From positions 90,830,001-90,894,000 of the forward strand of contig OX597817.1 of NCBI GenBank assembly GCA_951406725.2: a DNA stretch of 64,000 nucleotides, read 5' to 3'. Numbering within the stretch: the stretch's first letter is position 1; every line of letters begins with the position of its first letter. The DNA comes from Octopus vulgaris. Lineage: Eukaryota. Below are positions 3,665 through 55,800 of the stretch, piece after piece. A program made the position numbers and the translations under genes. The notes under the pieces are model-generated. The model saw nothing but the letters and a program-made list of their open reading frames with translations, was not told the DNA's origin and ran no database searches.

Positions 3665-4960
3665 ATCTTTTATCTTTTCCTTGTTTCAATCATTTGACTG
3701 CAACCATGCTAGAGCACAACCGTGAAGAATTTTTAGTCAAATGAATCAACCTCAGTACTTATTTATGTTAAGCCTGGTACTTATTCTATCAATCTCTTTT
3801 ACTGAACTAAGATATGGGGTCATAAACGTACCAACACTGGTTATCAAGCAGTGGTGGGGACAAATACAGACACAAACACACACACAAGAGGGTACTCAAA
3901 AGTAATCAGAAACATTCTCTGTGGGACAAGCCTGTTGTAGTTCATGCTTCTGCCACTAGAAGCCATTTGATGTGACCTTCAAGCATCAGTATGCTGACTG
4001 GTGTCATCGAGTGTAGTCCTACTGCCACATGATGTATCTTTGCTTTGCAGTACTTCTCCCCTGTTCATCAATTTTTGCTGAAATGAAGGAACAGTGTGTT
4101 TCTGTGAAATTCTGTTTCCTGCTGAGAAAAATGGTGGCTGAAACAATTGTCATGCTTCTAACAGCTTACAAGGACACTGCCATGAGCAAAACACATGTTT
4201 ATGAGTGGTTTTCATGCTTTAGGAATGGTCATTTGTCACTTGAAGATCAACCTCATTCAGGGCATCCATCGACCTCCTGAATGAATGAAAACATCATGAA
4301 AATTCATGAAATGATCTTGGCAGACCAGTACCAAACAATTGACATGGAGTGTTCTGGAACTCCTGTCAATGAATTTTGAGTGAGGAATTGCAAATGAAAA
4401 GAGTTACAGCAAAGCTTGTGCCTCACTTGCTCACAGAAGATCAAAAGCAGTCAGGAATGAATGTGTGTCATGAACTGGAAGAACAGTTGGAAATTGATCT
4501 GGACTTTCTTTTGAAGGTCATCACTGGTAATGAAAGCTGGTGCTACAGAATTTGCAGATGTGGAAGAGGTGAAGAAGAAAAAACAATGGGGACGTTAAAA
4601 GGTATCACTTTGCAAGAGTTCCAGCACCACTTCGAACAGTGGAAAATGTGTTTGAATGAATGCGTTGCTTCAAATGGAGAATAGTTTGAAGGTGATAAAA
4701 GTGTAAACATGTAAAACTAAGTGAATAAAATAATATTGCAAAATTTCATTTTCGTTTGGGTACCCCTTTGCATATATATATATATACATACATACACAAC
4801 AGGCTTGTTTCAGTTTCTCTCTACCAAATCCGCTCACATGGCTTTGTCAGCCCAAGGCTATAGCAGAAGATACTTGCCCAAGGTGCCATGCAGTGGGACT
4901 GAACCCAGAACTGTGAAATTGGGAAGCAAGCATCTTCCCTCACATCCACACCTGCATCTG
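3665..4960 (-). mobile_element. SINE family B split by a mariner insertion
   Basis: The tail half at 3665-3884 and the head half at 4790-4960 together match the intact copy at 9663-10080. Confidence 0.8.
3885..4770 (+). mobile_element. Internally deleted mariner transposon relic
   Basis: ORFs 4029-4280 and 4376-4684 give EQCVSVKFCF..., VYEWFSCFRNG..LEDQPHSGHPST, LVPHLLTEDQK (WVPHEL box), ITGNESWCY and CVASNGE.FEG. Imperfect TIRs are caagagggtactcaaa and tttgggtacccctttg. The catalytic core after the first D position is deleted. Confidence 0.9.
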
Positions 4961-21599: not shown

Positions 21600-23080
21600 A
21601 TGGACAGTCCCATTTTACTTAGCTTGATGTGTCTTCTCAAGTACAGAAAATTGCCAGAAATCATGGTCCCTTGCCATCTCTGGGAGGCTCAACATTAGTG
21701 GATCATTTCTTTCCACTTTGTTCCACTTCTTCATGGGTCTACCTCTTCCACATGTTCCCCAATTAAGGCTTGGTAATTCTTTATGGAGCTATCCTCATCC
21801 ATAGGCATCACATGACCATACCAGTGCAATCTTCTCTCTTGGATGCTACAACTAATGCTTCTTATACCCAATTTTTCCCTTAAATCACTTACACTCTGAT
21901 GTACATGGCTTCATTTCTTTCAAGACTTCTCATATCCTCTGTAGTCAAAACCCATATCTCACTGCCACATAGCTGTTCATACACAGGCATTATACAATCT
22001 GCCTTTCACTCTGAAGGAGAGACCCTTTGTTACCAACAAGGGTAGCAGCTCTCTTAACTTTGACTAACCCATTCTTATTCAAGCAATTACTCTTTCAGAG
22101 CACCCTCCGCCACTGCTAACTTGGTCACCTAGGTACCGGAAGCTACCTACTACTTCTAAGGATCTCATCAAACATTTGAGGAATTGTATTTTCTGTACAG
22201 TCTTAATATTCAATGAACCAGCACATCTTCCACACAAAAAGACTACTTTCTCTGTTAACCTTCCTCTGATACTACTGCACCTACTAGGTGTCCATAGTTT
22301 ACATTGGGTGCACTGTATGGAATTTCTACCCACACCACTTTTACATTTCCTACTTACTAAGACTTTCGTCTTTGCTAAATTATCTCTAAGGCTCTTTGAT
22401 TCCAGACCTTCTTCTCTAGTTTTGGTAGTGATTTATCTAAAAGAACAAGGTCATCAGCCTAGAGGAGCTCCCAAGGGTAGCCTGTCTTAAATTCCTCTGC
22501 TATGACCCAGAGGTCTATGATAAACAGGGAGAGGCTAAGAACTAATCCTTAGTAAACTCCTACCAGTAAACTAAATTTGTTACTATACTCATTGCTGACT
22601 TTCACTTTACTAACAGCAACCCTGTACATGGCCTGTATAGATCTCACTAACTACCCATCTATCCTTAGCTTCAGCAACAACCACCAGATAAGGGAGTAGG
22701 GGACCTTGTCAAAGACTTTCTCTGTGTTGACAAAAGCCAAGTGCAGAGGTTTATTGCATGCCATATTACCAAGAAGTTAGCATCAGTAATGTTTCTCAAG
22801 AACCCTTACCAAGAAGTTAGCATTAGTAGTGCTTCTCTTTGGCACAAAACCAAATTACATCTCATCTAGACCAACTCTCTTCCTAATTAGTAGAGTTATG
22901 ATTTCCATGACCTGATCCAGTATTTTGATACCTCTGTAATTATTTCTGTCTATGGTGTCACTTTTACATTTGTAATTTAACTATAATGCTTCTACACAGT
23001 TCTTGAGTTTGACTCCCTCAAGGACAACCTGATTATCTACACAGGTGACTAGGCCATATTCTACTCCACCAGATATTTTA
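21600..23080 (-). mobile_element. Decayed RTE LINE (PHD-bearing family), RT region
   Basis: NYRGIKILDQV, FGFVPKRSTT, LAFVNTEKVFDKVP, GRNSIQCTQCKLW...CGRC, LEVVGSFRYLGD and WYGHVM. Colinear with the copy at 36.1-38.1 kb. Confidence 0.9.
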
Positions 23081-24429: not shown

Positions 24430-25140
24430 TTGTATTTGCTGTTATTGTAGTTTTAACCTATTTCTGTGAACATCTCAATAAAAACTCTAAAATAAACAGC
24501 CAATGAGAGAAATTCATCCAAAATGGCCTTTGGAACTGAGATGGTAGGTTCTGGTAATATCATTTAAATGATCTGATGGGCTTTTAATTCTCTGTCACAG
24601 GACTGTTTTTCACAAGAAAAGGTGTTTAACCCTTTAGGTATGCTAATTTATGTTTGAGCATGTCACTAACTCTGACTTCAAAAATATTGTGAAAATTAAT
24701 ACTTTGAAATTGAATTTTTGTGCTTTTTATAAACAGCATGACAATCAAAATTGCTTATTGACAGCTTCTGTCTCTCTGCATACTTTTGGCATAATTAAAG
24801 GATTAATTAATATCTGAAAGACAAACATCTGCTGCTGCTTTTTCAAGGTCATTTAAAAATGTGGAAGCTTCTGAGTTGGAGTCTATGAGAAGAACATCAT
24901 CAACATAATCTGTATTTATGTAGTGGTTGAGTGATAAAGTAAGGTGGATTTTGTCAAAGTAAAGCTGAGCTCTAAACTTTTGTCAACTGATGTGCAAAGG
25001 ATATAGTTCAGGTGGGTTATAAATAGGAATGGTGTGAGGATATTGCTTTGTGAGACCCTGCACTGATATCAAAGAAAACAGTGCTTCCATCATGTGATTA
25101 GACTCTGGCTCTTGTGTTCTTGGAGAGCATCAATATTGTT
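24430..25140 (-). mobile_element. Old RTE LINE RT fragment (related to the 43.9-45.3 kb family)
   Basis: The minus strand gives DISAG.SQSNILTPFLFITHLNYILCTSVD and TDYVDDVLLIDSNSEASTFLNDLEKAA. Compare GILQGDTLAPFLFIIVVDYVLRMSVD and DFADDIVLISD in the younger copy. Confidence 0.75.
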
Positions 25141-36054: not shown

Positions 36055-38090
36055 CATCATCATCGTCGTCATCGTCATTGTTTAACGTCCGCTTTCCATG
36101 CTGGCATGGGTTGGACAGTTTGACTGAGGACTGGCGATCCAGAGGGCTGCACCATACTCCAATCTGATATGGCAAAGTTTCTACAGCTGGATACCCTTCC
36201 TAACACCAACCACTCCGAGAGTATAGTGGGTGCTTTTACATGCCACTGGCATGAGGGCCAGTCAGGCAGTTCTGGCAACGACCACACTCAAAAGGTGTTT
36301 TTTATGTGCTACCTGCACAGGAGCCAGTCTGGTGGCACTGGCAATAACCATGCTTGAATTTTTTTTTCATGTGCCACTAGCACATGTGTGAGTAAGGCAA
36401 CACTGGCAATAATCACGCATGAATGGTGCTTTTTACATTCCAATCAGCAGCCCTGGCAACAATCATGCTTGGATGGTGCTTTTAATGTTCCAATGGTACA
36501 AGTGCCAACCATGCAGTACTGTCATCAGCCACGTCGGTGATTTTAATTTTGATTTCACTTGCCTCAACAGGTCTTCACAAGCAAAGTTTCTTGTCTAATG
36601 AATGAGGGGTACTCATAAGTGGGCTGGTTGCACCCACTAGCACAGGCCACAGGTTATGGTCTAACTTGGCCTGTCAGGTCTTCTCAAGCACAACATATCT
36701 CCAACATATCTCTTGACCACTAGTCATTGCCTCGGTGAGGCCCAATGTTCGAAGGTCATGCTTCACCACCTCATCCCAGATCTTCCTGGCTCTACCTCTC
36801 CCACAGGTTCCCTCTACTGCTAGGATGTGACACTTTTGCACACAGCTGTCCTCATTCATTTGCAACACATGACCATACCAGCACAGTCATCTCTCTTGCA
36901 CACCACATCTGATGCTTCTTGAATCCAACTTTTCTCTCAGGGCACTTATACTCTGTTGTGTATGCTCACTGACATTACACATCCAGTGGAGCATATTGGT
37001 TTCATTCCTTGCAAGCTTACTCATGTCATCAGCAGTCATGGCCAATGTTTCACTGCTATGTAGCATGGCTGTTTGTACACATGCATCATACAGTCTACCT
37101 TTTACCCTGAGTGAGAGGCCCCTTGTCACAAGCAGAGGTAGGAGCTCTCTGAACTTTGTCTAGGCTATTCTTATTCTAGCAGCTACACTTTCAGAACATC
37201 CACCCCCACTACTGATTTGGTCACCTAGGTAACAGAAGCTATCAACTACTTGCAATTTTTCCCCCTGGAATGTGACGGAAGCTGTTCTCTGCACATCTTC
37301 AGTGTTTATAGCACCTGAGCATTTGCCACATACAAAAACTATCTTCCCAGTTAGCCTTCCTTTGATATTGCTGCACCTCTTATGTTTCCATAGCTTACAC
37401 TGGGTATAAACTTATGGAGTTTTTACCTACGCCTTTTTCTACAGATTAAGCAGGGCCATCTACCTGAAGGGATTTGTGGTTTGACTGCCTTCTTATTTAT
37501 TAAGACTTTGGTTTTAGCTAGGTTGACTCTAAGGCCCTTCGATTCTAATTCTTGTTTCCACACCTGAAACTTTTCCTCTAGTCCTGATAGTGACTCAGCA
37601 ATTAGAGCAAGGTCATCAGCATAGAGGAGCTCCCAGGGGCATTCTGTCATGAATTCCTCTGTTATTGCCTGGAGGACTAGGATGAATAAGAGGGGGCTGA
37701 GGACTGATCCTTGGTTGACCTCTACCCCTACCTGGAATTCTTCAGTGTACTCATTGTCAATCCTCACCTTACTGACAGCATCTCTGTATATGGCTTGCAC
37801 AGCTCTCACTAAACACTCATCTATCCCTAGTTTCCTCATTGACCACCAGATAAGGGATCAGGGGACCTTGTTAAACACTTTCTCCGTGTTAATGAAAGCC
37901 AGGTACAGAGGTTTATCTTTGGCTAGGTATTTCTCCTGCAGCTGTCTTACTAGAAATATAGCGCCAGTGGTGCTTTTCTCTGGTACGAACCGAAACTGCA
38001 TCTCATCTAGACTGACCCTCTCTCTAATTAGTTGGGCTATGACCCTCTCCATGAACTTAATAACCTGATCCAAGAACTTGATACCTCGTG
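36055..38090 (-). mobile_element. 5'-truncated RTE LINE with PHD-like insert, repeat-rich 3' UTR and (GAT)n tail
   Basis: QFRFVPEKSTTGAIFLVRQLQEK, AFINTEKVFNKVP, VNQGSVLSPLLF, LLYADDL, GLRVNLAKTKVL, KGRLYDACVQTAMLHSSETL and GRGRARKIWDEVV. Several frameshifts and stops. Confidence 0.95.
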
Positions 38091-38799
38091 CGTGAGTTGT
38101 CTAAGAGATCAAAAGTCAAGAAAAAGAGGCACTCATATATTTGTCAAAGTTTACCTCTTTCTTCATAGTTTGAAAATAAGGACCATTTAGAGCAACTCTG
38201 TCAATGATTCTGGTCTCATATTAAAGCAATCATCAAAGCTGAAGTTACTGAATATGTCCTTAAATACCTCTCACACCTTGTATAGTTCAAGATACACAAT
38301 GCCTGAAGTCTAAAAAAACAACAAAAAAAGAAGATATGGTAACAGCTGGTTTAGCTTTGATTAATCATGAGTCTGATTATTCAGAGTTCATATGGGCTTA
38401 ACCACCACCAGCACTAACACCACCACCACCTCCTGCAACAACAATAACTACAGCTACTGTTGCTGCATGTGTGTGCCGATTGTCATACAATATCACTGTT
38501 CTGATTTATATCTGATAATCTAAAGTTTATATAAACAGAGATCTTTGTGTTATGTGTCTACATATGAGTTGATCTATCAATTTGAAATAAATAGTTATAC
38601 TGAGACATTACAGAAACTAAAATTGTCATATAGTGGCAGGGTTATAGTGGAATATTACACTCACTAAATAACTTGTAATATTCTTTTGGTTATTTAAAAT
38701 GCCAATAGGAATACCTTGGTAGATGACTGAGACCATCCTTTTTGGCACGTCATTCACATCCTACACACAACAAAACTTCAGTCCCCTAAATAGTTTATC

Positions 38800-42961: not shown

Positions 42962-43870
42962 GTACATATGTGTATGTGTGTGTATGTGAATGTGTGTAAG
43001 ACTTACTATCTCTATCTTGAATCTCTGTCCCACAATTCTCCATTTCTTTCAACTCTCTCAACATTTGTCTTCATGTGGAAGTCCTATCACGTCACTGGTA
43101 TCATAACCAAAAGTGAATAGTGATGGAAATAATATAGATATGTTACAGAAATACAAACATACACAGGTCTTTCACATGTACAAACACAGTTGTTCAGCAT
43201 TTCTACATAGATACATATCTTCTTCCTATATGCGCGCGCACACACACACACACACACACACAAGCTCTCACACGCTTCTGTTCAAAAAACAAAATTTCTC
43301 ATCTAATCTTCAACAATCTCCGTTTAACAGAAATGAAACCTTGACTTGTGATTTTAACCATTTTCAGAAGACATGGAAATGTTGATAATCATTTCAGTCT
43401 TAGAATGATCCAAATTTTACAATACCAATGATTAATCTAACACTTAAAGTGTAAATCTGGAATCTTCAGCTTCATTATCATAGCACTAAAATTTGTAGAA
43501 CATTAAGAATAATAAATAATTAAAACATCATTACTTAAATACTTTGCTTTTGGTTTTTAGTCACTGATAACATCTCGCTTATTGCAATAACATAATTAAT
43601 AATGACAGAAGCAGTATTAATACCAAAATATAATATTAATCCCAATTTAGAAGTGGATGTTGTGTAAGAACACGGAATACTGCATTAGTTACCCAAAGAG
43701 AACCTTTCATATGGAATGGCACAAATTATCACTCATGTTTATAACGCTAGTGGGAGATAATCATGCACCATCACTGCCAAGAGTACCAGATCACATGATT
43801 TCAACTCTCCTTGGCTTTGTCAATAGTAGATACCCAAAGCTAAGGTAGCAGCAATAAGTATAGAATCTTC

Positions 43871-45256
43871 ATAATCAACAACAATGATGAAAAGAAATGG
43901 GGCGAGTGTGTCTCCCTGCAGTATTCCAGCTTTGATTGAGAAAGATGATGTTTCTCCGTCAGGGGTTAAGATGGTTGAAGACGTATCTGTGTAGAGGACC
44001 TTGATGGCAGAAATGATTTTGTCTGGTATCACATAGAGCTTAAGGATTTCAAACATCTTGTACCTATCTACAGAATCGAACGCTTTAGAAAAGTCTACAA
44101 ATACCATTGCAAGATTGTGATTAAATGCTTTTGATTCTTTAATAAGTCTGCGTAGGCATAGTATCTGGCTCAGCGTTGAGCGCCCATGTCTGAATCCATT
44201 TTGGTTCTTTCGGAGCAAAGGTTCAACAAAAAGGACAAGACGATTTAGGATCAGTTTGTTGTACAGTTTTGCAGCAATTGACATTAGAGATATACCCCTG
44301 TAGTTGGTGACGAGGGATAAATCGCCTTTTTTGGGTCAAAGCCGGAATACTGCAGGGAGACACACTCGCCCCATTTCTTTTCATCATTGTTGTTGATTAT
44401 GTGCTACGTATGTCAGTTGATACCATCTCTGGCAAGGGCTTTGAAATAAAACCAAGAAGTTCCAGACACCCAGCTGAGTACTTGACAGACACTGACTTTG
44501 CTGACGACATCGTTCTTATCAGTGATTCTCTCTCCAATGCCCAGTCTCTTTTACAATCTCTTGAACAAGCCTCAAATTGTGTAGGTCTTTACCTCAATGA
44601 GGCCAAGACTGAATACATAAACAAGTGTCTGTCCAACAGTGATTGCATCATCCATACTCTCAACAATGCGCCCTTAAATATGGTTTCTGATTACAAATAT
44701 CTTGGGTCATACATATCATCATCTGGAAATGACTTTCTAACTAGAAAGGGTATAAGATCTGGTAATGACATGCATAAGATCTGGTCATCAAATCTAAGTA
44801 GAGACTTCAAACTTGAAATCTTCAAAGCCACAGTCGAACCAATTCTACTATATGGCTCAGAAACCTGGACGTTATCAAAGAAGCTTGAGAGGTGGTTGGA
44901 TGGAACCTACACTCGCCTCCTTATGAGAGATCAAAATCTCTCGTGGAAGTGCCATCCAACCAAAATGCAAATATATGGGAAACTACCACCTGTGTCATCT
45001 CTTGTGAAAGGTAAGAGAGTCCAGTTTGCTGGACATTGTTGTAGAGCTGAAAAAGAGGTAAATTCTACTCTTCTCCTCTGGAAGCCATCTACTCGCAATA
45101 CCAGAGGGCGCACACTCTCCTACCCTGATGTAATCTCCAGGGATACAGACATCCAGCAACAGGACCTCCGTAATGCCATGATGGACCGTGAAGTCTGGTA
45201 AATTCCAGCATGGTAAATTCCATTGTCTCGACCACGGTTGAACAATGATGATGATG
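43871..45256 (+). mobile_element. Young RTE LINE insertion with 5' inversion and 11-bp TSD
   Basis: The inverted segment 43871-44335 reads PKKGDLSLVTNYRGISLMS...QNGFR...FVDFSKAFDSV...GILQGDTLAP. The sense segment 44336-45256 reads GILQGDTLAP...DFADD...YKYLGS...LLYGSETW...FAGHC and ends in (ATG)n. The TSD atagaatcttc is at 43860-43870 and 45257-45267. Confidence 0.95.
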
Positions 45257-45391
45257 ATAGAATCTTCGTGTGGAATCAGGCACTGGTGTTGTAAATAGTG
45301 ACATTTATAATAACATTTGCCTATTAGACTCAGCATTAACTTCAAATTAATATTATTATCGCTGTTATCATTTTATTACTATTATTATTAC

Positions 45392-46110
45392 CAAGGCAGT
45401 GAGCTGGCAGGATCATTAGAATGATGAGCAAAAGGCTTAGCGGTTAGTCAATCTTCACATTCTGGGTTCAAATTTTGCTGAGGCTGATTTTGCCTTTCAT
45501 CCTTTCAGGGTTAAGAAAATAAGTATCAGCTGAACACTGGGGTCGATGTAATCAACTTACCCCTCACACCAAAATTGCTGGCCTTGTGCCTAAATTCAAA
45601 ACTATCATTATTGTAATTGCTGTTATTATTATTATTATCATCATCATCAAGGAGGTGAGCTGACAGAATCGTTAGCATCTGTCTTGACGTTCTGAGTTCA
45701 AATTTCACCGAGATTGACTTTGCCTTTCATCCTTTTGGGGTTGATAAAATAAGTACCTCTCAAGTACTGGGGTCGATATAATTGACTTATCCCCCTTCCC
45801 CAAATCCCAGGCCTTGTGCCTATAATAGACAGGAGTCTGGTACAGCCCCTCAGCTTACCAGCCCTAGTCAAACCATCCAACCCATGCCAGCATGAATAAC
45901 GGATGTTAAATGATGATAATGATTACTAATCAAGTACAGGGGAAAATATTGTCTAACCCATTCCACTTAGAATTGCATACCTGCAAGGTTGACTTTGCCT
46001 TTCATCTTTTGGGATCAATAAAATAAATTAAGTACCAATTGATCCCTGGGATTGATGTAATTTACTTACACCCCCCCCTAAAGTTACTGACCTGTGCCAA
46101 AATTTAAAAT
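45392..46110 (+). mobile_element. Cluster of three SINE family A copies plus an RTE tail fragment (45830-45920)
   Basis: The core tttgcctttcatc is at about 45489, 45718 and 45994, with (ATT)n linkers. Confidence 0.85.
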
Positions 46111-47104
46111 CATTATTATAGCTATTATTTATTGTTATTATATTTGGCAGAATATTACAGGACTAGTGTGACCTGTAAATATTTCATGGAATTAATGATA
46201 AACCTATTGGGTTGTTTCTGGAAACTTTATCCAAAAAACCTGAATGTGCAGCTTGTGTTGTGTCTGTATGGAAAGATAGTCAATCATTTGATACTCATAT
46301 AAAAGTGAAAGAAATTGGAATACGATGATTACTTAATGCACTTTATATAAAAATTTTATATATTTTATGTACAATTTTATAGACTTAATACACAGCACTC
46401 ATAAAATAAATATTGACTCTTATTTTTCAAATTTTCCCATAAACAAAAAAATATCCTGTACATATGATACAACCTTTAGTTAAATTGCATATATCTGCCA
46501 TGTAAATAAGCATGAATATTTCATGGAATTGCACTTATGCACAAGTGTTAAGTGATAGGTGATAAAAAAAAACTTAGTTCAATAAAAAAAAAATACACTT
46601 TTCACTATCCAATCTCCACCACCTCCATCTCTCTCTCTCTCTCTTGCTTTAACCTCACCATCAGAACATCACCCCTCTGCTAAAATTATCTTTTTAACTC
46701 TCTTCTTCTACCTTTAACACTTTAACCATGTAATAAATATTATGTCAGGGACTCTTCTCTCTCCCTCTTTTTTGTTTCTCCCTCTTTCTGTCTCAGTCTT
46801 CACCTTATCCTCCTTTTTTTCTCTCCTCTCTTTCCCTTCAAATAATCACATGAAAGTATTACAATTACATTCCCTCTACCTCACATCGTGGATGCTTCTC
46901 ACTCTCACTTTTTCTCCCTCCCTCTTTTTCTTTCTCCCCCTTTTTCGCTAATCATGTGAAAGCATTACCCACAGGCTAAGTAATGCAATGACAAGCAGAA
47001 TTATTATAAGATTGAACAAACTACCTTGCAGTATTTTGCTCCATTCTAAGTTGAAATCCCACTGAAGTCAACTTTATCCTTCATTTCTCTATAACAAAAT
47101 CTTT

Positions 47105-48154: not shown

Positions 48155-49050
48155 TTCCACAAAAGAAGTGCTACAAATATGTAGGTATTGATGAAAATAT
48201 ATGATACAAAGGTAGGAACAAAAATAGAGTAAACATAGAAATTACAGCAGACTGGAAAATATGTGGAAGCCAGAGTTTTCCTCTTACATGACAACATCCC
48301 ACAATGCATTTGCAGTGCCCATAACCGATACCAACATTTTTGATACCCAACTGTTCTATAGAAAAAATCCTTTCCAAAGATTCTAACATCAACAGCAAAT
48401 TTTACTAAAACAGTGATATTGACAGACACTGTCTTCGAAGAAAAGAGAGTGCCTTTGAGTGTCATGTGATATCACAGTGCTATATTGACCAGATCCTAAG
48501 ACCTCAAATCGTGCCCTTTTTTGCATGTCACCATAGTCACGTGTCCCAGCAGGACAATACTCCCTCCCACACAACCAGGGTCACCATGGACTTCCTGCGG
48601 CAGCACAACATGAGAACCATGACGTGGCCAGTTCTCAGCCTGGATGTGAGCCCAACTGAACACCTGTGGGATGAAATCCAGAGACAGCTGAACCAGGTGG
48701 TCCCAAGGCTGGTAACTCATGTGGAGCTGGAGCCAGCTTTCCTCAGAGTGTGGACAAAGGTGCCAATGGCTTTAGTGAACTGCTTCATGCACTCCATGTA
48801 CCAACAGTGTAGGGTCATTTTGAACACTCAGGGAGGGCATACACGGTATTGAACCTGTCATGCCCTACAATCTCGATTTGCTGGATCTGCCCACTACCAG
48901 AACACATGACAATGACCCATAGACTATAGACAAAGTGCATCCAAGAAATTGACTTTATCAGATTTATCAAAATTTATATCTGACATAATGAAATTAAAAC
49001 ATATTTCAGTCACAATCGTATCACGCATTTCTTTTGTATTTCAGTGTATA
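48155..49050 (+). mobile_element. Tc1-family transposon relic (C-terminal DD34E region)
   Basis: ORF 48466-48852 reads YIDQILRPQIVPF...QQDNTPSHT...WPVLSLDVSPTEHLWDEI...GGHTRY. A partial TIR pair is caaaagaagtgc (48160) and gcatttcttttg...cagtgTA (49025-49050). Confidence 0.88.
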
Positions 49051-49190: not shown

Positions 49191-49863
49191 ACAATGTTAG
49201 CTGTGGCTCAGCTGCATCAGTGTACACATTTTCTGCTCTTTAGTCCAAAAAAGGGGATGACCAGGTTGCCAAAATGAATTTTCTTTCACAACAGCAGCAA
49301 CAAAATATTTTGCTTTTTGAACTATATATTCACCTGCAGTATAAAAGAGGGTTTGCATTTCTGGCCAGCATGTCTGAAGAGGCATTGACAAGTGAAATAG
49401 GTGTGAAAGAGTTGCAGTTATATGCCATAACCAAGAATATATTTCTCAACACCATGAGAGAATATACATATGTATAACACACACAAACATAGATGCATAT
49501 TTATCTATCTTCATGTGTATGTGTGTATACATACATATATATATAGTTCAAATTTAGAGAAAAACAAAGATGAAGACAAGAAAGTGTATTAATTTGACAC
49601 TTGGGAAAAATGGAAATGTCTTTTACATTTCGAACCTGCACTCTTCGACGGAAAAGAATAAGAGGAAATAGAAAGTGAATGAAAAATCTGTGTTGAGTTT
49701 TGGTTGTCCAATATCTATCTCTGTATGTATGTGTGTGTGTATATATATATATATACATACATATATATATATATATATGTAGGTCCTGGGTTGAGTCGGG
49801 GTTAACCACAGTAAATAAGGTACTCAATACATAGCAGAGTAAATTAATTTATTTTATAGAAGG

Positions 49864-49914
49864 AACTTCTACAGGACTAGAACTGTTTCATTCAAATGAA
49901 ATCATCAGGAAGCT
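49864..49914 (-). ncRNA. Type I hammerhead ribozyme fold (left arm)
   Basis: AGCUUC-CUGAUGA-U.UUC(AUUU)GAA.U-GAAA-CAG(UUCUAGUC)CUG-U-A/GAAGUU. The core is intact and stems I-III can form. Confidence 0.75.
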
Positions 49915-50105
49915 TGCTGTCAAAATAAGTTTTGGCATTTATACATTTAGGCAGGTTTAATGGGGTGGTGGTGGGGGACATTTTTTGGGTAAGCAGGGCA
50001 CAAACTGTCTTTCTTAGGGGAGTGGTCAAAAGAATCAGTGATAAAGTAAATAAATGAATAAATAGAATAATTGAATAGAGTTTTAGGTAAATAAGAAGAC
50101 TATCG

Positions 50106-50145
<40 letters not shown>

Positions 50146-51006
50146 TACATACACATACATACACACACATACACATACATACACACACACATATATATAC
50201 ATACACACATATATACAAATACACATACACATACATGCCAACACGCAAACACACGCACACATATATCTACACATATATAAATAAATATATACACCCATAC
50301 ACACACACATATATATATATGTATATATACATACATATACACACACATTTTTATATACATATATACACACATATATATACACACATATATATATATATAC
50401 ATATATACACACATACATATATATATATATACATATATACACACATACATATACTCATATATATATATACATATATACACACACATACATATACTCATAC
50501 ATACACACATGTGTGTGTATGTATGAGTATATATATATGTGTGTGTATATATGTGTGTATATATATGTGTGTATATATGTATATAAAAATGTGTGTGTAT
50601 ATGTATATATACATATATATATATGTGTGTGTGTATGGGTGTGTATATTTATTTGTATATGTGTAGATATATGTGTGCATGTGTTTGCATGTTGGCATGT
50701 ATGTGTATGTGTATTTGTATATATGTGTATGTATATATATGTGTGTGTATATGTATGTGTATGTGTGTGTATGTATGTGTATGTATATATGTGTATATAT
50801 ATATATATATATAAGCGATAGTCTTCTTATTTACCTAAAACTCTATTCAATTATTCTATTTATTCATTTATTTACTTCATCACTGATTCTTTTGACCACT
50901 CCCCTAAGAAAGACAGTTTGTGCCCTGCTTACCCAAAAAATGTCCCCCACCACCACCCCATTAAACCTGCCTAAATGTATAAATGCCAAAACTTATTTTG
51001 ACAGCA

Positions 51007-51057
51007 AGCTTCCTGATGATTTCATTTGAATGAAACAGTTCTAGTCCTGTAGAGGCT
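51007..51057 (+). ncRNA. Type I hammerhead ribozyme fold (right arm)
   Basis: AGCUUC-CUGAUGA-U.UUC(AUUU)GAA.U-GAAA-CAG(UUCUAGUC)CUG-U-A/GAGGCU, with predicted cleavage after A51051. Confidence 0.75.
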
Positions 51058-51323
51058 CCTTCTATAAAATAAATATATATATATATATATAATGTTAATA
51101 ATAAGGAGGATGGAGATTTGTACATCGATAATTCAGTTTACAGTCATACACAGCATATTACCATGACTTATATGTGTTTGCACTGCAACTGTACACCATT
51201 GCAGATGCAACCTTGCAACAATGTCAGTGCAGTTTCATCAGGGTCTGTATATTAGATCCACTTTGAATTAAACTCTGCTCACAGAGCAAATACAGTATCC
51301 ACCTGGATAATGTATCCCTGCAA

Positions 51324-52899: not shown

Positions 52900-55800
52900 A
52901 CACACTCATAGCCTCAGTGTGCCATATTATTAGATATTGTGTCTGACTCTCTCATACATAGATCATCATCATCTGTTAAGGTCAGTTCTCCATTCTGGCA
53001 TGAGTTGGATGGTTTGCCACCTCTCCTCTTCAACATATTCAAGCACAGCATTAGCAATCAGTCTCTGTTCATCAGTAAGTGTTGCAATGCCTGGATGATT
53101 GAGGTCTTCATGATGGCCAAGATGCAGTACTCCAATAAGTTCAGGCAGCCCAATTGCTAAACAATTAATGCCATTATCTATCAGAATTGCATCAATTGAG
53201 TGCAGTGCCATGTTTTCTGTGTGTTCTGCATTAAAACCTTGGTGCAAGATATCTTCAATCATGGATTCCTTGTAAGTGGTCTACAGGTGAAGAGCATTTG
53301 CAGAGTTCATATACATGCACAGGGCAGCAAACATAACATGCAACTGTAAGGGCATCCGACAGGCAGCAGCTTCTAGCAATGCATGTTCCAGTGTGTCATC
53401 ATTTGAGAGAAGACCATATCTCAGGCATGCTGCCTTAACTATTGGCAAGATTTCTCCTTCTACAGTGTGCAAATCCTGGAAGTTCATGGCGCCTGAAACA
53501 TGCAGCAGCAACATTCACAAGTGAATTTTTTCTGTGTCTCTAGGGCTCACTGTATACATTCTACTGATGATATTAGTATTCCTTTGCCTTGATGTCCATG
53601 TTCTAGTGCGCTCATTAAACACATAACACAGCGGAATGTCAGTGTGGAAGTGGTTCCTTGCATCATCATTGTCAAGCTCATTCAGTTTGAACCATGCAGT
53701 GAGGGTAGTGTCATGGTCCCTCTCTGCTTGAGCAGCTTGCTGAGTGCTGTCTCTGTGAAAGTAAACTCTTTGCTGGCCTTCAAGATGTACTGCAAGTCTG
53801 TAGACAGTGTGAGATGCATCAGGTAGCTTGAACTCTGACAGTTTCCACATAGCTTCCAGAGAAGAAACATATCGGCAAGCAAGATAATTAGTAATTTCAT
53901 TGTGAGCTTGATTCTGCTTATGATCCGCTACTGTCTCTTACTTCAACAGAAGCACAGTTATGTCCCTTGTACATGTATTTGAAGATATATTTAAGGCTTT
54001 TCACGGATAAACAAATTTCTACATTAATGTGAGCTCTGGGCTTTTTCAATAGGTAGGCACTGTATGGCACAACGTTCCTGTTGTCAACTGAGTGATGTCA
54101 AACTTGAGCTGTGATTCCAGTATAGCATCTTCTGTACTCTAGATAGCTATTCAAATTCAGAAGCATTTCATCTCTGTAGTTCTTTGGGAATTTCTTTTGA
54201 TATGAACCATTTTCCATGCAAGGGGAGGAAGGATTATCTGTTCCACAAGGGCCATGTGTCATGCATTTTTTTTCTAAATCATGCAAGAGTGGATCATCAT
54301 TGGCATCAGGGATTTCAGCTGTCACGATCCTATCTATGTCATCACTGTTTCTGAGTTTGTCCTCGTTTCTCAACACTACCAACATGTGGCAGTGGGGAAG
54401 ACCTCTCTTCTGAAACTCAATGACATGGACATGAGCCACTGGCACTGCAAAAATGTGTCTATCCTTTATGTCCCTCATAAGTTCTGCAAGGTGTGACTTC
54501 TGCACTCGGGCAACTAAATCTGGCCTATGTTCAGGTGTTTCATTTTGCTGTAGATTATCAACTATCTCAAGGCACTTCAAATTGCAAGTGTAAGGGATGA
54601 ACAAATCTAGCTTAGCACATTTTGAAACAATTAACATGACATCCTGAAAATATTAGTGCATATTCTTTGGACTGCCTGTGAATGAGGAAGGCAGTATCAC
54701 TTGCACTCCTGGTTCAATATTCTCATCTACTCCTGTGTTCAAATAGTCCATCAATCTGTTGTACCTTTTCACTCACAACTAGGTTGGATTGTTCCTAAGA
54801 TATTGCAACCTGCAATCTTCAACCTTGACATATACATCTACAACATACTATTGAAATAATTTTTCAGCTCTATGAATAACACTAAGCCCATCTCTGAATG
54901 TCAGACGATAGCTGTAGTATTCTTGCACTGTCAGACGATTACGCACACATGTCTGGTGTTCCTCAACATGTTGCATCTCAAAATGCCATCCAAATTCCCA
55001 TGGGGAAACAGAATTGGGTAGCTCATAGTGTCAAGTGGCACGACGAGTAAATTATTTTTTTCAGGAGGAGCATCTCTGGAATGCACAATAATGTCTCTAT
55101 TTTCAGGAGGGGCACCAATTTTCTCCAGCAAACATTGTTGCTATTTCATTGCTGATAGGGAAATTGTAGCGTCTAATATCGGATCCTCTCCTGAAACGTA
55201 ACTCAAGTCTCCATATTGGCACGTTGTCTCTTCTGGCTCTCTCCTCTCCTTATTTAACTGCATGCATTTTCTTGTACAATTCTGCATAAGGATTAATTTG
55301 GTGGATAACAACACTTATTTTTCTCATAGTAACAGGGGAACACTCAGAATTTTGAGGTGCATCCATCCTGTGCTGCAGAGCTTCATCCGCATCAATGATG
55401 TATAACTGGCAGTATTGCAGTTGAGCATTAGCAGGATGTAGGTTTGTCATTGTGTGGTTAGTTTGGCCCTGAATGCAGAAGCAATATGGATCCCTTCCTG
55501 GAAGTGCTTCAAGTTTGACTCCAAATGACGCAAAGGAGAAGGTACAATTGTAATTTCTGATATTTCTACGGAATGAAATAAACTCTTGATCAATTCCCTC
55601 AAATAAATTTTTGAGTGTCTCTTGATATGGTTGCAGTGCAGGTATGTTCACTTTTCCATTGAGGCAACAACTGTTATTTTCATTTCTAAACCTAAGCGCA
55701 CCACAGTATTCACATATAATGTTCATTTCTCCTCTGTTAAATTGTTCAGCACTGGCCTATGTCTTCTCACATACTGTCGCTGTATCTGATGCCTCCTTAA

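Follow-up and report, generated by a model that had tools for sequence, protein, structure and literature searches.

A putatively RTE-type LINE copy in Octopus vulgaris whose 5' inversion probably arose by twin priming

A retrotransposon insertion was analysed in a window of 64 kb, by which we mean the whole stretch of DNA under study. From left to right, the left flank was followed by ATAGAATCTTC, 465 bp of inverted reverse transcriptase (RT) sequence, 921 bp in sense orientation with the (ATG)n tail, and ATAGAATCTTC again (Table 1). The initial annotation had described a target-site duplication (TSD), an inverted 465-bp piece and a sense 3' piece with an (ATG)n tail, and its coordinates were correct. 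ATAGAATCTTC occurred only twice in the 64-kb window, counting either strand. The chance of such a match was ~7e-7 for a given 11-mer and 6e-6 for the 9 bases that were not common to the tail. The first two TSD bases (AT) could be assigned to the (ATG)n tail as well, so the TSD was 9-11 bp long. The inverted piece matched RVT_1 in Pfam (E=2e-22) and corresponded to aa 606-760 of a full-length relative, P0006. The sense piece was open over 287 aa, also matched RVT_1 (E=5e-10), and corresponded to approximately aa 740-1029 of the same protein. The 65 bp reported earlier to occur twice with one mismatch were recovered as inverted-repeat arms at 43870-43935 and 44336-44401 (66 nt, 98%), which comprised the 65-bp overlap and one base common with the TSD end. 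The single mismatch was synonymous. It lay in the inverted copy alone, as a CpG transition, and the family majority had the letter of the sense copy (29143/29478 of the summed depth in the short-read run X2). No second copy of the RTE-type family was found elsewhere in the 64-kb window. The copy is dead, and nothing at the locus points to a function.

Table 1. Positions of the parts of the insertion in the window
Feature	Position	Strand	Remark
5' target-site duplication (TSD), 11 bp	43860..43870	+	final base C shared with the element (1-nt microhomology)
Inverted 5' segment, 465 bp	43871..44335	-	N-terminal half of the RT, 155 aa without a stop
Inverted copy of the 65-bp overlap	43871..43935	-	private CpG C>T at 43928
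Inversion junction	44336..44336	.	T compatible with either piece (1-nt microhomology)
Sense 3' segment, 921 bp	44336..45256	+	remaining RT, C-terminal region, tail
Sense copy of the 65-bp overlap	44336..44400	+	KAGILQGDTLAPFLFIIVVDY
Local templated replacement 1	44754..44763	+	10 nt from 22 nt downstream, net -6 nt
Local templated replacement 2	45199..45207	+	copied from 14 nt downstream, net +5 nt, early stop at 45199-45201
(ATG)n microsatellite tail	45245..45256	+	adjoins the natural stop codon, like the tails of most close relatives
3' TSD	45257..45267	+	ATAGAATCTTC

Other repeats were observed in the window. An abundant SINE-like repeat, which matched the window at many places, was present in several copies to the right of the insertion at 45346-46141. 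Short matches on the minus strand at 37423-38109, 22079-22941 and 24818-25050 were old LINE fragments of other families with 26-43% identity to P0006. ORF fragments at 52969-55756 (minus strand) resembled a Helitron Rep/helicase, and those at 4373-4684 and 48409-48852 (plus strand) resembled Tc1/mariner transposases. A near-palindrome of 1.2 kb at 49847-51074 was 91% self-complementary and rich in (CA/TA) repeats, and it was either a fold-back duplication or an assembly artefact.

The identity of the element was examined through its relatives. The homologue search returned 438 proteins; 60 of the 120 relatives listed were at least 1,000 aa long, and the full-length ones measured 1,006-1,061 aa. 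The window copy itself lacked the 5' half, and the anatomy was tested on relatives at 50-81% identity. Exo_endo_phos and RVT_1, corresponding to an APE endonuclease and an RT, were present in all three full-length relatives scanned. An open stretch of more than 60 aa was absent from the 253-484 nt upstream in all five near-complete metagenome loci. No CCHC or C2H2 pattern was found in the last 200 aa of the 60 full-length relatives among those listed. The (ATG)n repeat started at the stop codon in the window copy and in 11 of the 13 relatives printed, and the other two ended in (GTT)n. L1-clade elements are marked by ORF1 and an ORF2 with a C-terminal CCHC motif, and by a poly(A) tail. These features were absent here, with no CCHC motif, no long upstream ORF and no poly(A). 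In addition, the TSD of 9-11 bp, which in its 11-bp reading started with AT and was preceded by T, had an RTE-like length and start.

The accessible text of earlier studies describes the RTE clade as having a single ORF of ~1,000-1,100 aa with an APE endonuclease and an RT (PMC1291365, PMC13174262). The 3' UTR of the clade is very short and consists of AT-rich trimer or tetramer repeats. Animal RTE TSDs are given there as 7-15 bp with a peak at 10-12 bp and with A (then T) as the first base (PMC6007223, PMC13295347). The window family was similar to RTE-clade LINEs such as C. elegans RTE-1, Bov-B and schistosome SR3, as far as the available portions of the papers describe them (PMC1291365, PMC6007223, PMC13295347), in its single APE+RT ORF of ~1,050 aa, its very short 3' UTR of trimer repeats, its TSD within 7-15 bp starting with AT and its strong 5' truncation. 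In contrast to those LINEs, the window copy had no T-stretch ~10 nt upstream of the TSD, and no T run was present at 43845-43855. This stretch is a population tendency that is weak in animal RTE LINEs and not obligatory for each copy. The octopus element RTE-2_OV, described in the accessible part of its paper with 1,109 aa, a zinc finger and UTRs of ~600 nt (PMC9115989), differed in anatomy from the window family. Judged on anatomy rather than on an RT tree, the element would be an RTE-type LINE, with RTEX or a neighbouring clade also compatible. The RTE assignment of the initial annotation agreed with the ORF, domains, tail and TSD, as a clade placement by anatomy alone.

Independent short-read runs, chosen from 24 listed, were compared with the window, namely X2 (organism label B), X17 (organism label F) and X20. 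In X2, a contig at 43608-43899 ran from unique flank through the TSD into inverted RT sequence, with one difference and a depth of 48.1 (flank, 52.2). It reached 29 bases past 43870 (40 past the TSD start), which was below the 31-base bridging rule of the tool at that point, and it ended at a position at which a 31-mer graph is expected to branch into other family copies. The 3' junction was found in X2 (45232-45345, depth 51.6) and in X17 (45234-45345, depth 11.9), both with 0 differences. A single flank site distinguished X2 from the window, and at five or more sites inside the element the window letter was missing from X2. X2 is therefore likely to be another individual. These results confirmed that the insertion is real and shared, also in its inverted left end. 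In X20, family sequence was present and the flanks were almost absent. No contig crossed the central junction among the 24 contig pieces listed (17,375 further). The summed contig depth rose approximately 30-fold from the N-terminal half of the RT to the 3' end; this fits 5' truncation and is not a copy number. Two further observations concerned contig joints. Contigs at many times single-copy depth joined 45118 to 44887, 45240 to 45098, and 45234-45236 to 45016-45093. These joints in 44887-45240, for which the strand was not given, probably belong to non-autonomous elements that derive from the 3' end, carry internal duplications and exist in multiple copies. The left flank at 43590-43840 held another repeat family, and one contig in both X2 and X17 joined 43641 to 45063; this probably reflects a different, 5'-truncated copy of the RTE-type element that lies within a member of that repeat family elsewhere.

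The divergence of the two halves was measured against the family majority, where a difference was a site at which at least 80% of the X2 depth differed; 40 of the 106 difference rows were listed. The copy differed at 15 or more of 1,386 bases overall, with at least 6/465 (1.3%) in the inverted half and at least 9/921 (1.0%) in the sense half (Fisher p=0.59). The values against X20 contigs were 10/439 and 12/613, respectively (p=0.83). Since the halves were equally diverged from the family, there was no sign of the two subfamilies that the initial annotation had proposed to look for. CpG transitions made up 5 of the 15 differences from the family majority. It had also been argued earlier that the copy was young because both pieces were still ORFs. 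This was only partly right and overstated the youth of the copy. The inverted piece was open over 155 aa, but the copy carried later mutations and a frameshift; the sense frame had lost two codons near 44754-44763 and met a stop ~14 codons before the end of the relatives. The replacement at 44754-44763 was missing from the X2 and X17 contigs (other depth equalled all depth at 44757 and 44760) and is therefore likely to be later than the insertion. The two templated replacements had the same polarity, each with 9-10 nt copied from 14-22 nt downstream, and resembled products of synthesis-dependent microhomology repair. The copy is fairly recent and not pristine, being ~1% diverged and common to runs with two organism labels.

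Ostertag and Kazazian reportedly proposed in 2001 the twin-priming model for 5'-inverted mammalian L1. The window copy showed this geometry, with an inverted upstream piece and a sense tailed piece inside one TSD pair. The two pieces were adjacent in element coordinates and joined with a 65-bp duplication. Because the breakpoint coincided with the TSD edge to the base, the inversion was coupled to the insertion event. In addition, 400 of the 465 inverted bases were absent from the sense piece. A sense-strand template was therefore needed, for which the RNA of the insertion complex is the simplest choice. The twin-priming geometry given by the initial annotation held, with the inversion at the TSD edge, overlapping halves and equal divergence. 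These results suggested that the locus is a 5'-truncated RTE-type copy whose front 465 bases were probably inverted as it inserted, through twin priming on one RNA molecule.

In such an event, the endonuclease would first nick the bottom strand, and the freed end would pair AT with the (ATG)n tail and prime cDNA 1. The top strand would then be cut 9-11 nt away, and its 3' end would prime cDNA 2 inside the RNA, at a site just after the IIVVDY codons, from which 465 nt would be copied toward the 5' end. The polymerase for cDNA 2 could be the element's RT or a host polymerase, the sequence being compatible with either. cDNA 1 would run 65 nt beyond the internal priming site, presumably displacing cDNA 2, and would thereby produce the duplication. 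Host repair would then join the ends of the two cDNAs, which overlap by 1 nt, and fill them in. CpG decay and the two small templated repair scars would accumulate later.

The junctions were inspected for microhomology. At the left junction, the last base of the TSD formed a pair with the one that comes directly behind the overlap (1 nt), and the next positions were a mismatch and a G:T; the 3' end of the primer would pair with the RNA at only one Watson-Crick position before the mismatch. At the central junction, an X2 loose end behind 44336 was the upstream sequence of the family and extended the inverted piece by one base, and the fit of T44336 to both pieces agreed with the protein alignment. 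At the right end, 2 nt were common to the tail and the target. The 1-nt microhomology at each of the two inversion junctions was within the published range, and chance gives each of them 1/4 of the time. RNA folding around the internal priming site showed nothing special (z=+0.91). For L1, the accessible texts report 2-5 bp of microhomology at the 5' junction in ~70% of inversions (PMC2912911) and 1-9 bp at the TSD junction (bioRxiv 2021.12.20.472354).

Insertion-coupled host repair was considered as another origin of the inverted piece. Here, the free top-strand end would be extended by a polymerase theta-type activity, or a broken-off double-stranded cDNA would be captured in inverted orientation, with RNA, second-strand DNA or another genomic copy as the template. 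The microhomologies of only 1 nt and the two templated-insertion scars in the window copy speak for it, and alternative NHEJ and polymerase theta are proposed to act even in L1 inversions, according to the available part of one study (bioRxiv 2021.12.20.472354). However, 465 nt would have to be synthesised on a template unless a second break occurred, and the template must happen to overlap the cDNA end; moreover, one of the scars was missing from X2 and X17 and so likely later than the insertion. We consider this origin unlikely.

The inversion might also have followed the insertion, if the front of an ordinary 5'-truncated copy had been inverted later via staggered breaks that duplicated 65 bp. 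Staggered-break inversions give rise to inverted duplications, as work on Drosophila has shown, and this counts for such an origin. Rearrangements of this kind do occur, as in a distant RTE-like copy (L035, described below) with an internal inversion, filler and no TSD. However, one break would have had to land exactly on the TSD edge, and the inverted junction in X2 was at flank-like depth. Among the joints listed (15 of 23), there was no joint from the flank to 44335, no uninverted allele and no empty-site joint. The initial annotation had proposed to look for both a non-inverted allele and an empty site, and neither was observed among these joints. We regard a later rearrangement as very improbable.

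Two RNAs or two insertions could give a similar locus if a second, tail-less fragment had entered in antisense at the 5' junction of the first. Twin priming with two RNAs is described for snRNA/L1 chimeras in the accessible text of PMC4476161. However, the pieces overlapped in element coordinates, and two independent pieces abut within 100 nt in only ~6% of cases under a uniform model. There was a single TSD pair, the halves were equally diverged, and the overlap copies were identical save one CpG change, which left this origin even less credible than a later rearrangement. A fold-back read or mis-join in the assembly might be suspected from the 1.2-kb palindrome elsewhere in the window and from the central junction, which was not among the contig pieces listed, but both outer junctions, the left one inverted, were in short-read contigs of another individual or, for the right one, of X17 as well, and an assembly artefact is therefore of negligible probability.

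The window copy was compared with L1, for which the figures below come from the accessible parts of the sources. It resembled twin-primed mammalian L1 in its order (TSD, inverted upstream piece, sense 3' piece, tail, TSD), in the inversion at the TSD edge, in the duplication, in sizes and ratio within the L1 range, and in microhomology at both inversion junctions. Junction duplications were present in 17% of L1 inversions (283/1,703) with a median of 22 bp in one study (bioRxiv 2024.08.27.596794) and in 33% (89/273) in another, where the inverted piece had a median of 666 bp (bioRxiv 2021.12.20.472354). The medians for the inverted piece ranged over 540-666 bp in these two studies. The forward piece averaged 2.6 times the inverted one in L1 (bioRxiv 2024.08.27.596794), and the ratio in the window copy was 2.0. 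The duplication in L1 is explained by tail-primed cDNA that overruns the internal priming site (bioRxiv 2024.08.27.596794). All measures of the window copy lay within the L1 twin-priming ranges. In contrast to L1, the window family had a single ORF of ~1,040 aa, no upstream ORF, no CCHC motif and (ATG)n instead of poly(A). In addition, the TSD was 9-11 bp compared with ~15 bp, the microhomology lay at the lower end of the range with 1 nt, and 65 bp were duplicated against a median of 22 bp. We weighed the evidence against twin priming, namely the single event, the chance-level microhomology, a duplication of three times the L1 median, the repair scars inside the copy, the near restriction of 5' inversion to L1 in human cells in cell assays, and the lack of an empty site, of a contig over the central junction and of any other inversion among the joints (15 of 23) and pieces (24) listed.

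Other LINEs were also compared, again from the available parts of the publications. 5' inversions were obtained only with L1 in human cells, save one insert of zebrafish Nimb-2_DR, and were linked to TSDs of 10-20 bp (PMC4245944). This Nimb-2_DR insert (I group, TSD ~12 bp), the single 5'-inverted one in chicken DT40 cells, was like the window copy in being a rare inversion of a non-L1 LINE with a TSD of at least 10 bp (PMC4245944). However, Nimb-2_DR belongs to a different clade with two ORFs and the event took place in cell culture, whereas the window copy is germline. L2 and RTE elements are described as forming U6 chimeras by template switching only (PMC4476161). The snap-back of R2 cDNA also joins antisense element sequence to the upstream target, but it copies only sequence that is already in the cDNA (PMC11371274). 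Such a snap-back was tried as an explanation and rejected, since 400 of the 465 inverted bases lay outside the sense piece.

The frequency of inversion was then considered. In L1, inversions make up 19-31% of insertions according to accessible texts including PMC2912911 and bioRxiv 2021.12.20.472354. In the window family, seven of the 15 joints listed (of 23) lay wholly in the element; all seven were same-strand skips, and none linked the two halves. No other inverted copy of the family was found among the joints listed (15 of 23; 15 of 1,094 loose-end rows). These results hinted that, unlike in L1, inversions are uncommon in the window family, as seen in short contigs and a partial listing. 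Among metagenome relatives, one of 35 loci had strand-discordant hits, and this was L035, one of nine copies of a distant family; many close metagenome loci were element-sized contigs and probably collapsed, which made this a weak test of inversion. In L035 (672-2069), a sense 5' part was followed by 11-13 nt of filler copied from close to the 3' end and by an inverted stretch of 179 bp; ~590 bp were deleted, and a tailed 3' stub of 54 bp remained. It was rejected as a case of twin priming because it was an internal inversion without a TSD in a distant family. Both its sense part and the inverted piece of the window ended at the IIVVD codons, which may be a coincidence.

The search listings and the accessible text of open papers contained no description of twin priming by an RTE element. 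The accessible portions of the papers on RTE-1, Bov-B and SR3 (PMC1291365, PMC6007223, PMC13295347) made no mention of 5' inversion, and in those of PMC5389967 and PMC13367326 the term twin priming stood in the reference lists alone. The earlier statement that such events are less documented than for L1 was in line with this search, in which one non-L1 case, Nimb-2_DR, was published and no RTE report was found. What we describe is probably a known mechanism in a clade for which we found no report of it.

It has been proposed that 5' inversion depends on properties of L1 as well as on factors of the host, and that the overhang must measure at least 10 nt, as stated in the available text of PMC4245944. 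An RTE copy from the germline that has a TSD of 9-11 bp and a complete inversion-duplication like those of L1 supports overhang length over L1 identity as the deciding factor. It also enables a cross-clade test of the inversion rate against TSD length, with RTE at 10-12 bp, L1 at ~15 bp and L2/CR1 at 3-5 bp. Such halves are joined by at least one annotation tool only when its option for mammalian L1 is chosen, according to the accessible description (PMC11484939), and copies elsewhere may be miscounted. With the chances evenly balanced in our view, twin priming may not be confined to L1 or to mammalian cells but within reach of every APE-type LINE whose cuts produce at least ~10 nt of overhang, without the need for ORF1p, poly(A) or a zinc knuckle, and RTE elements may undergo it repeatedly, at a low, countable rate, in invertebrate germlines.
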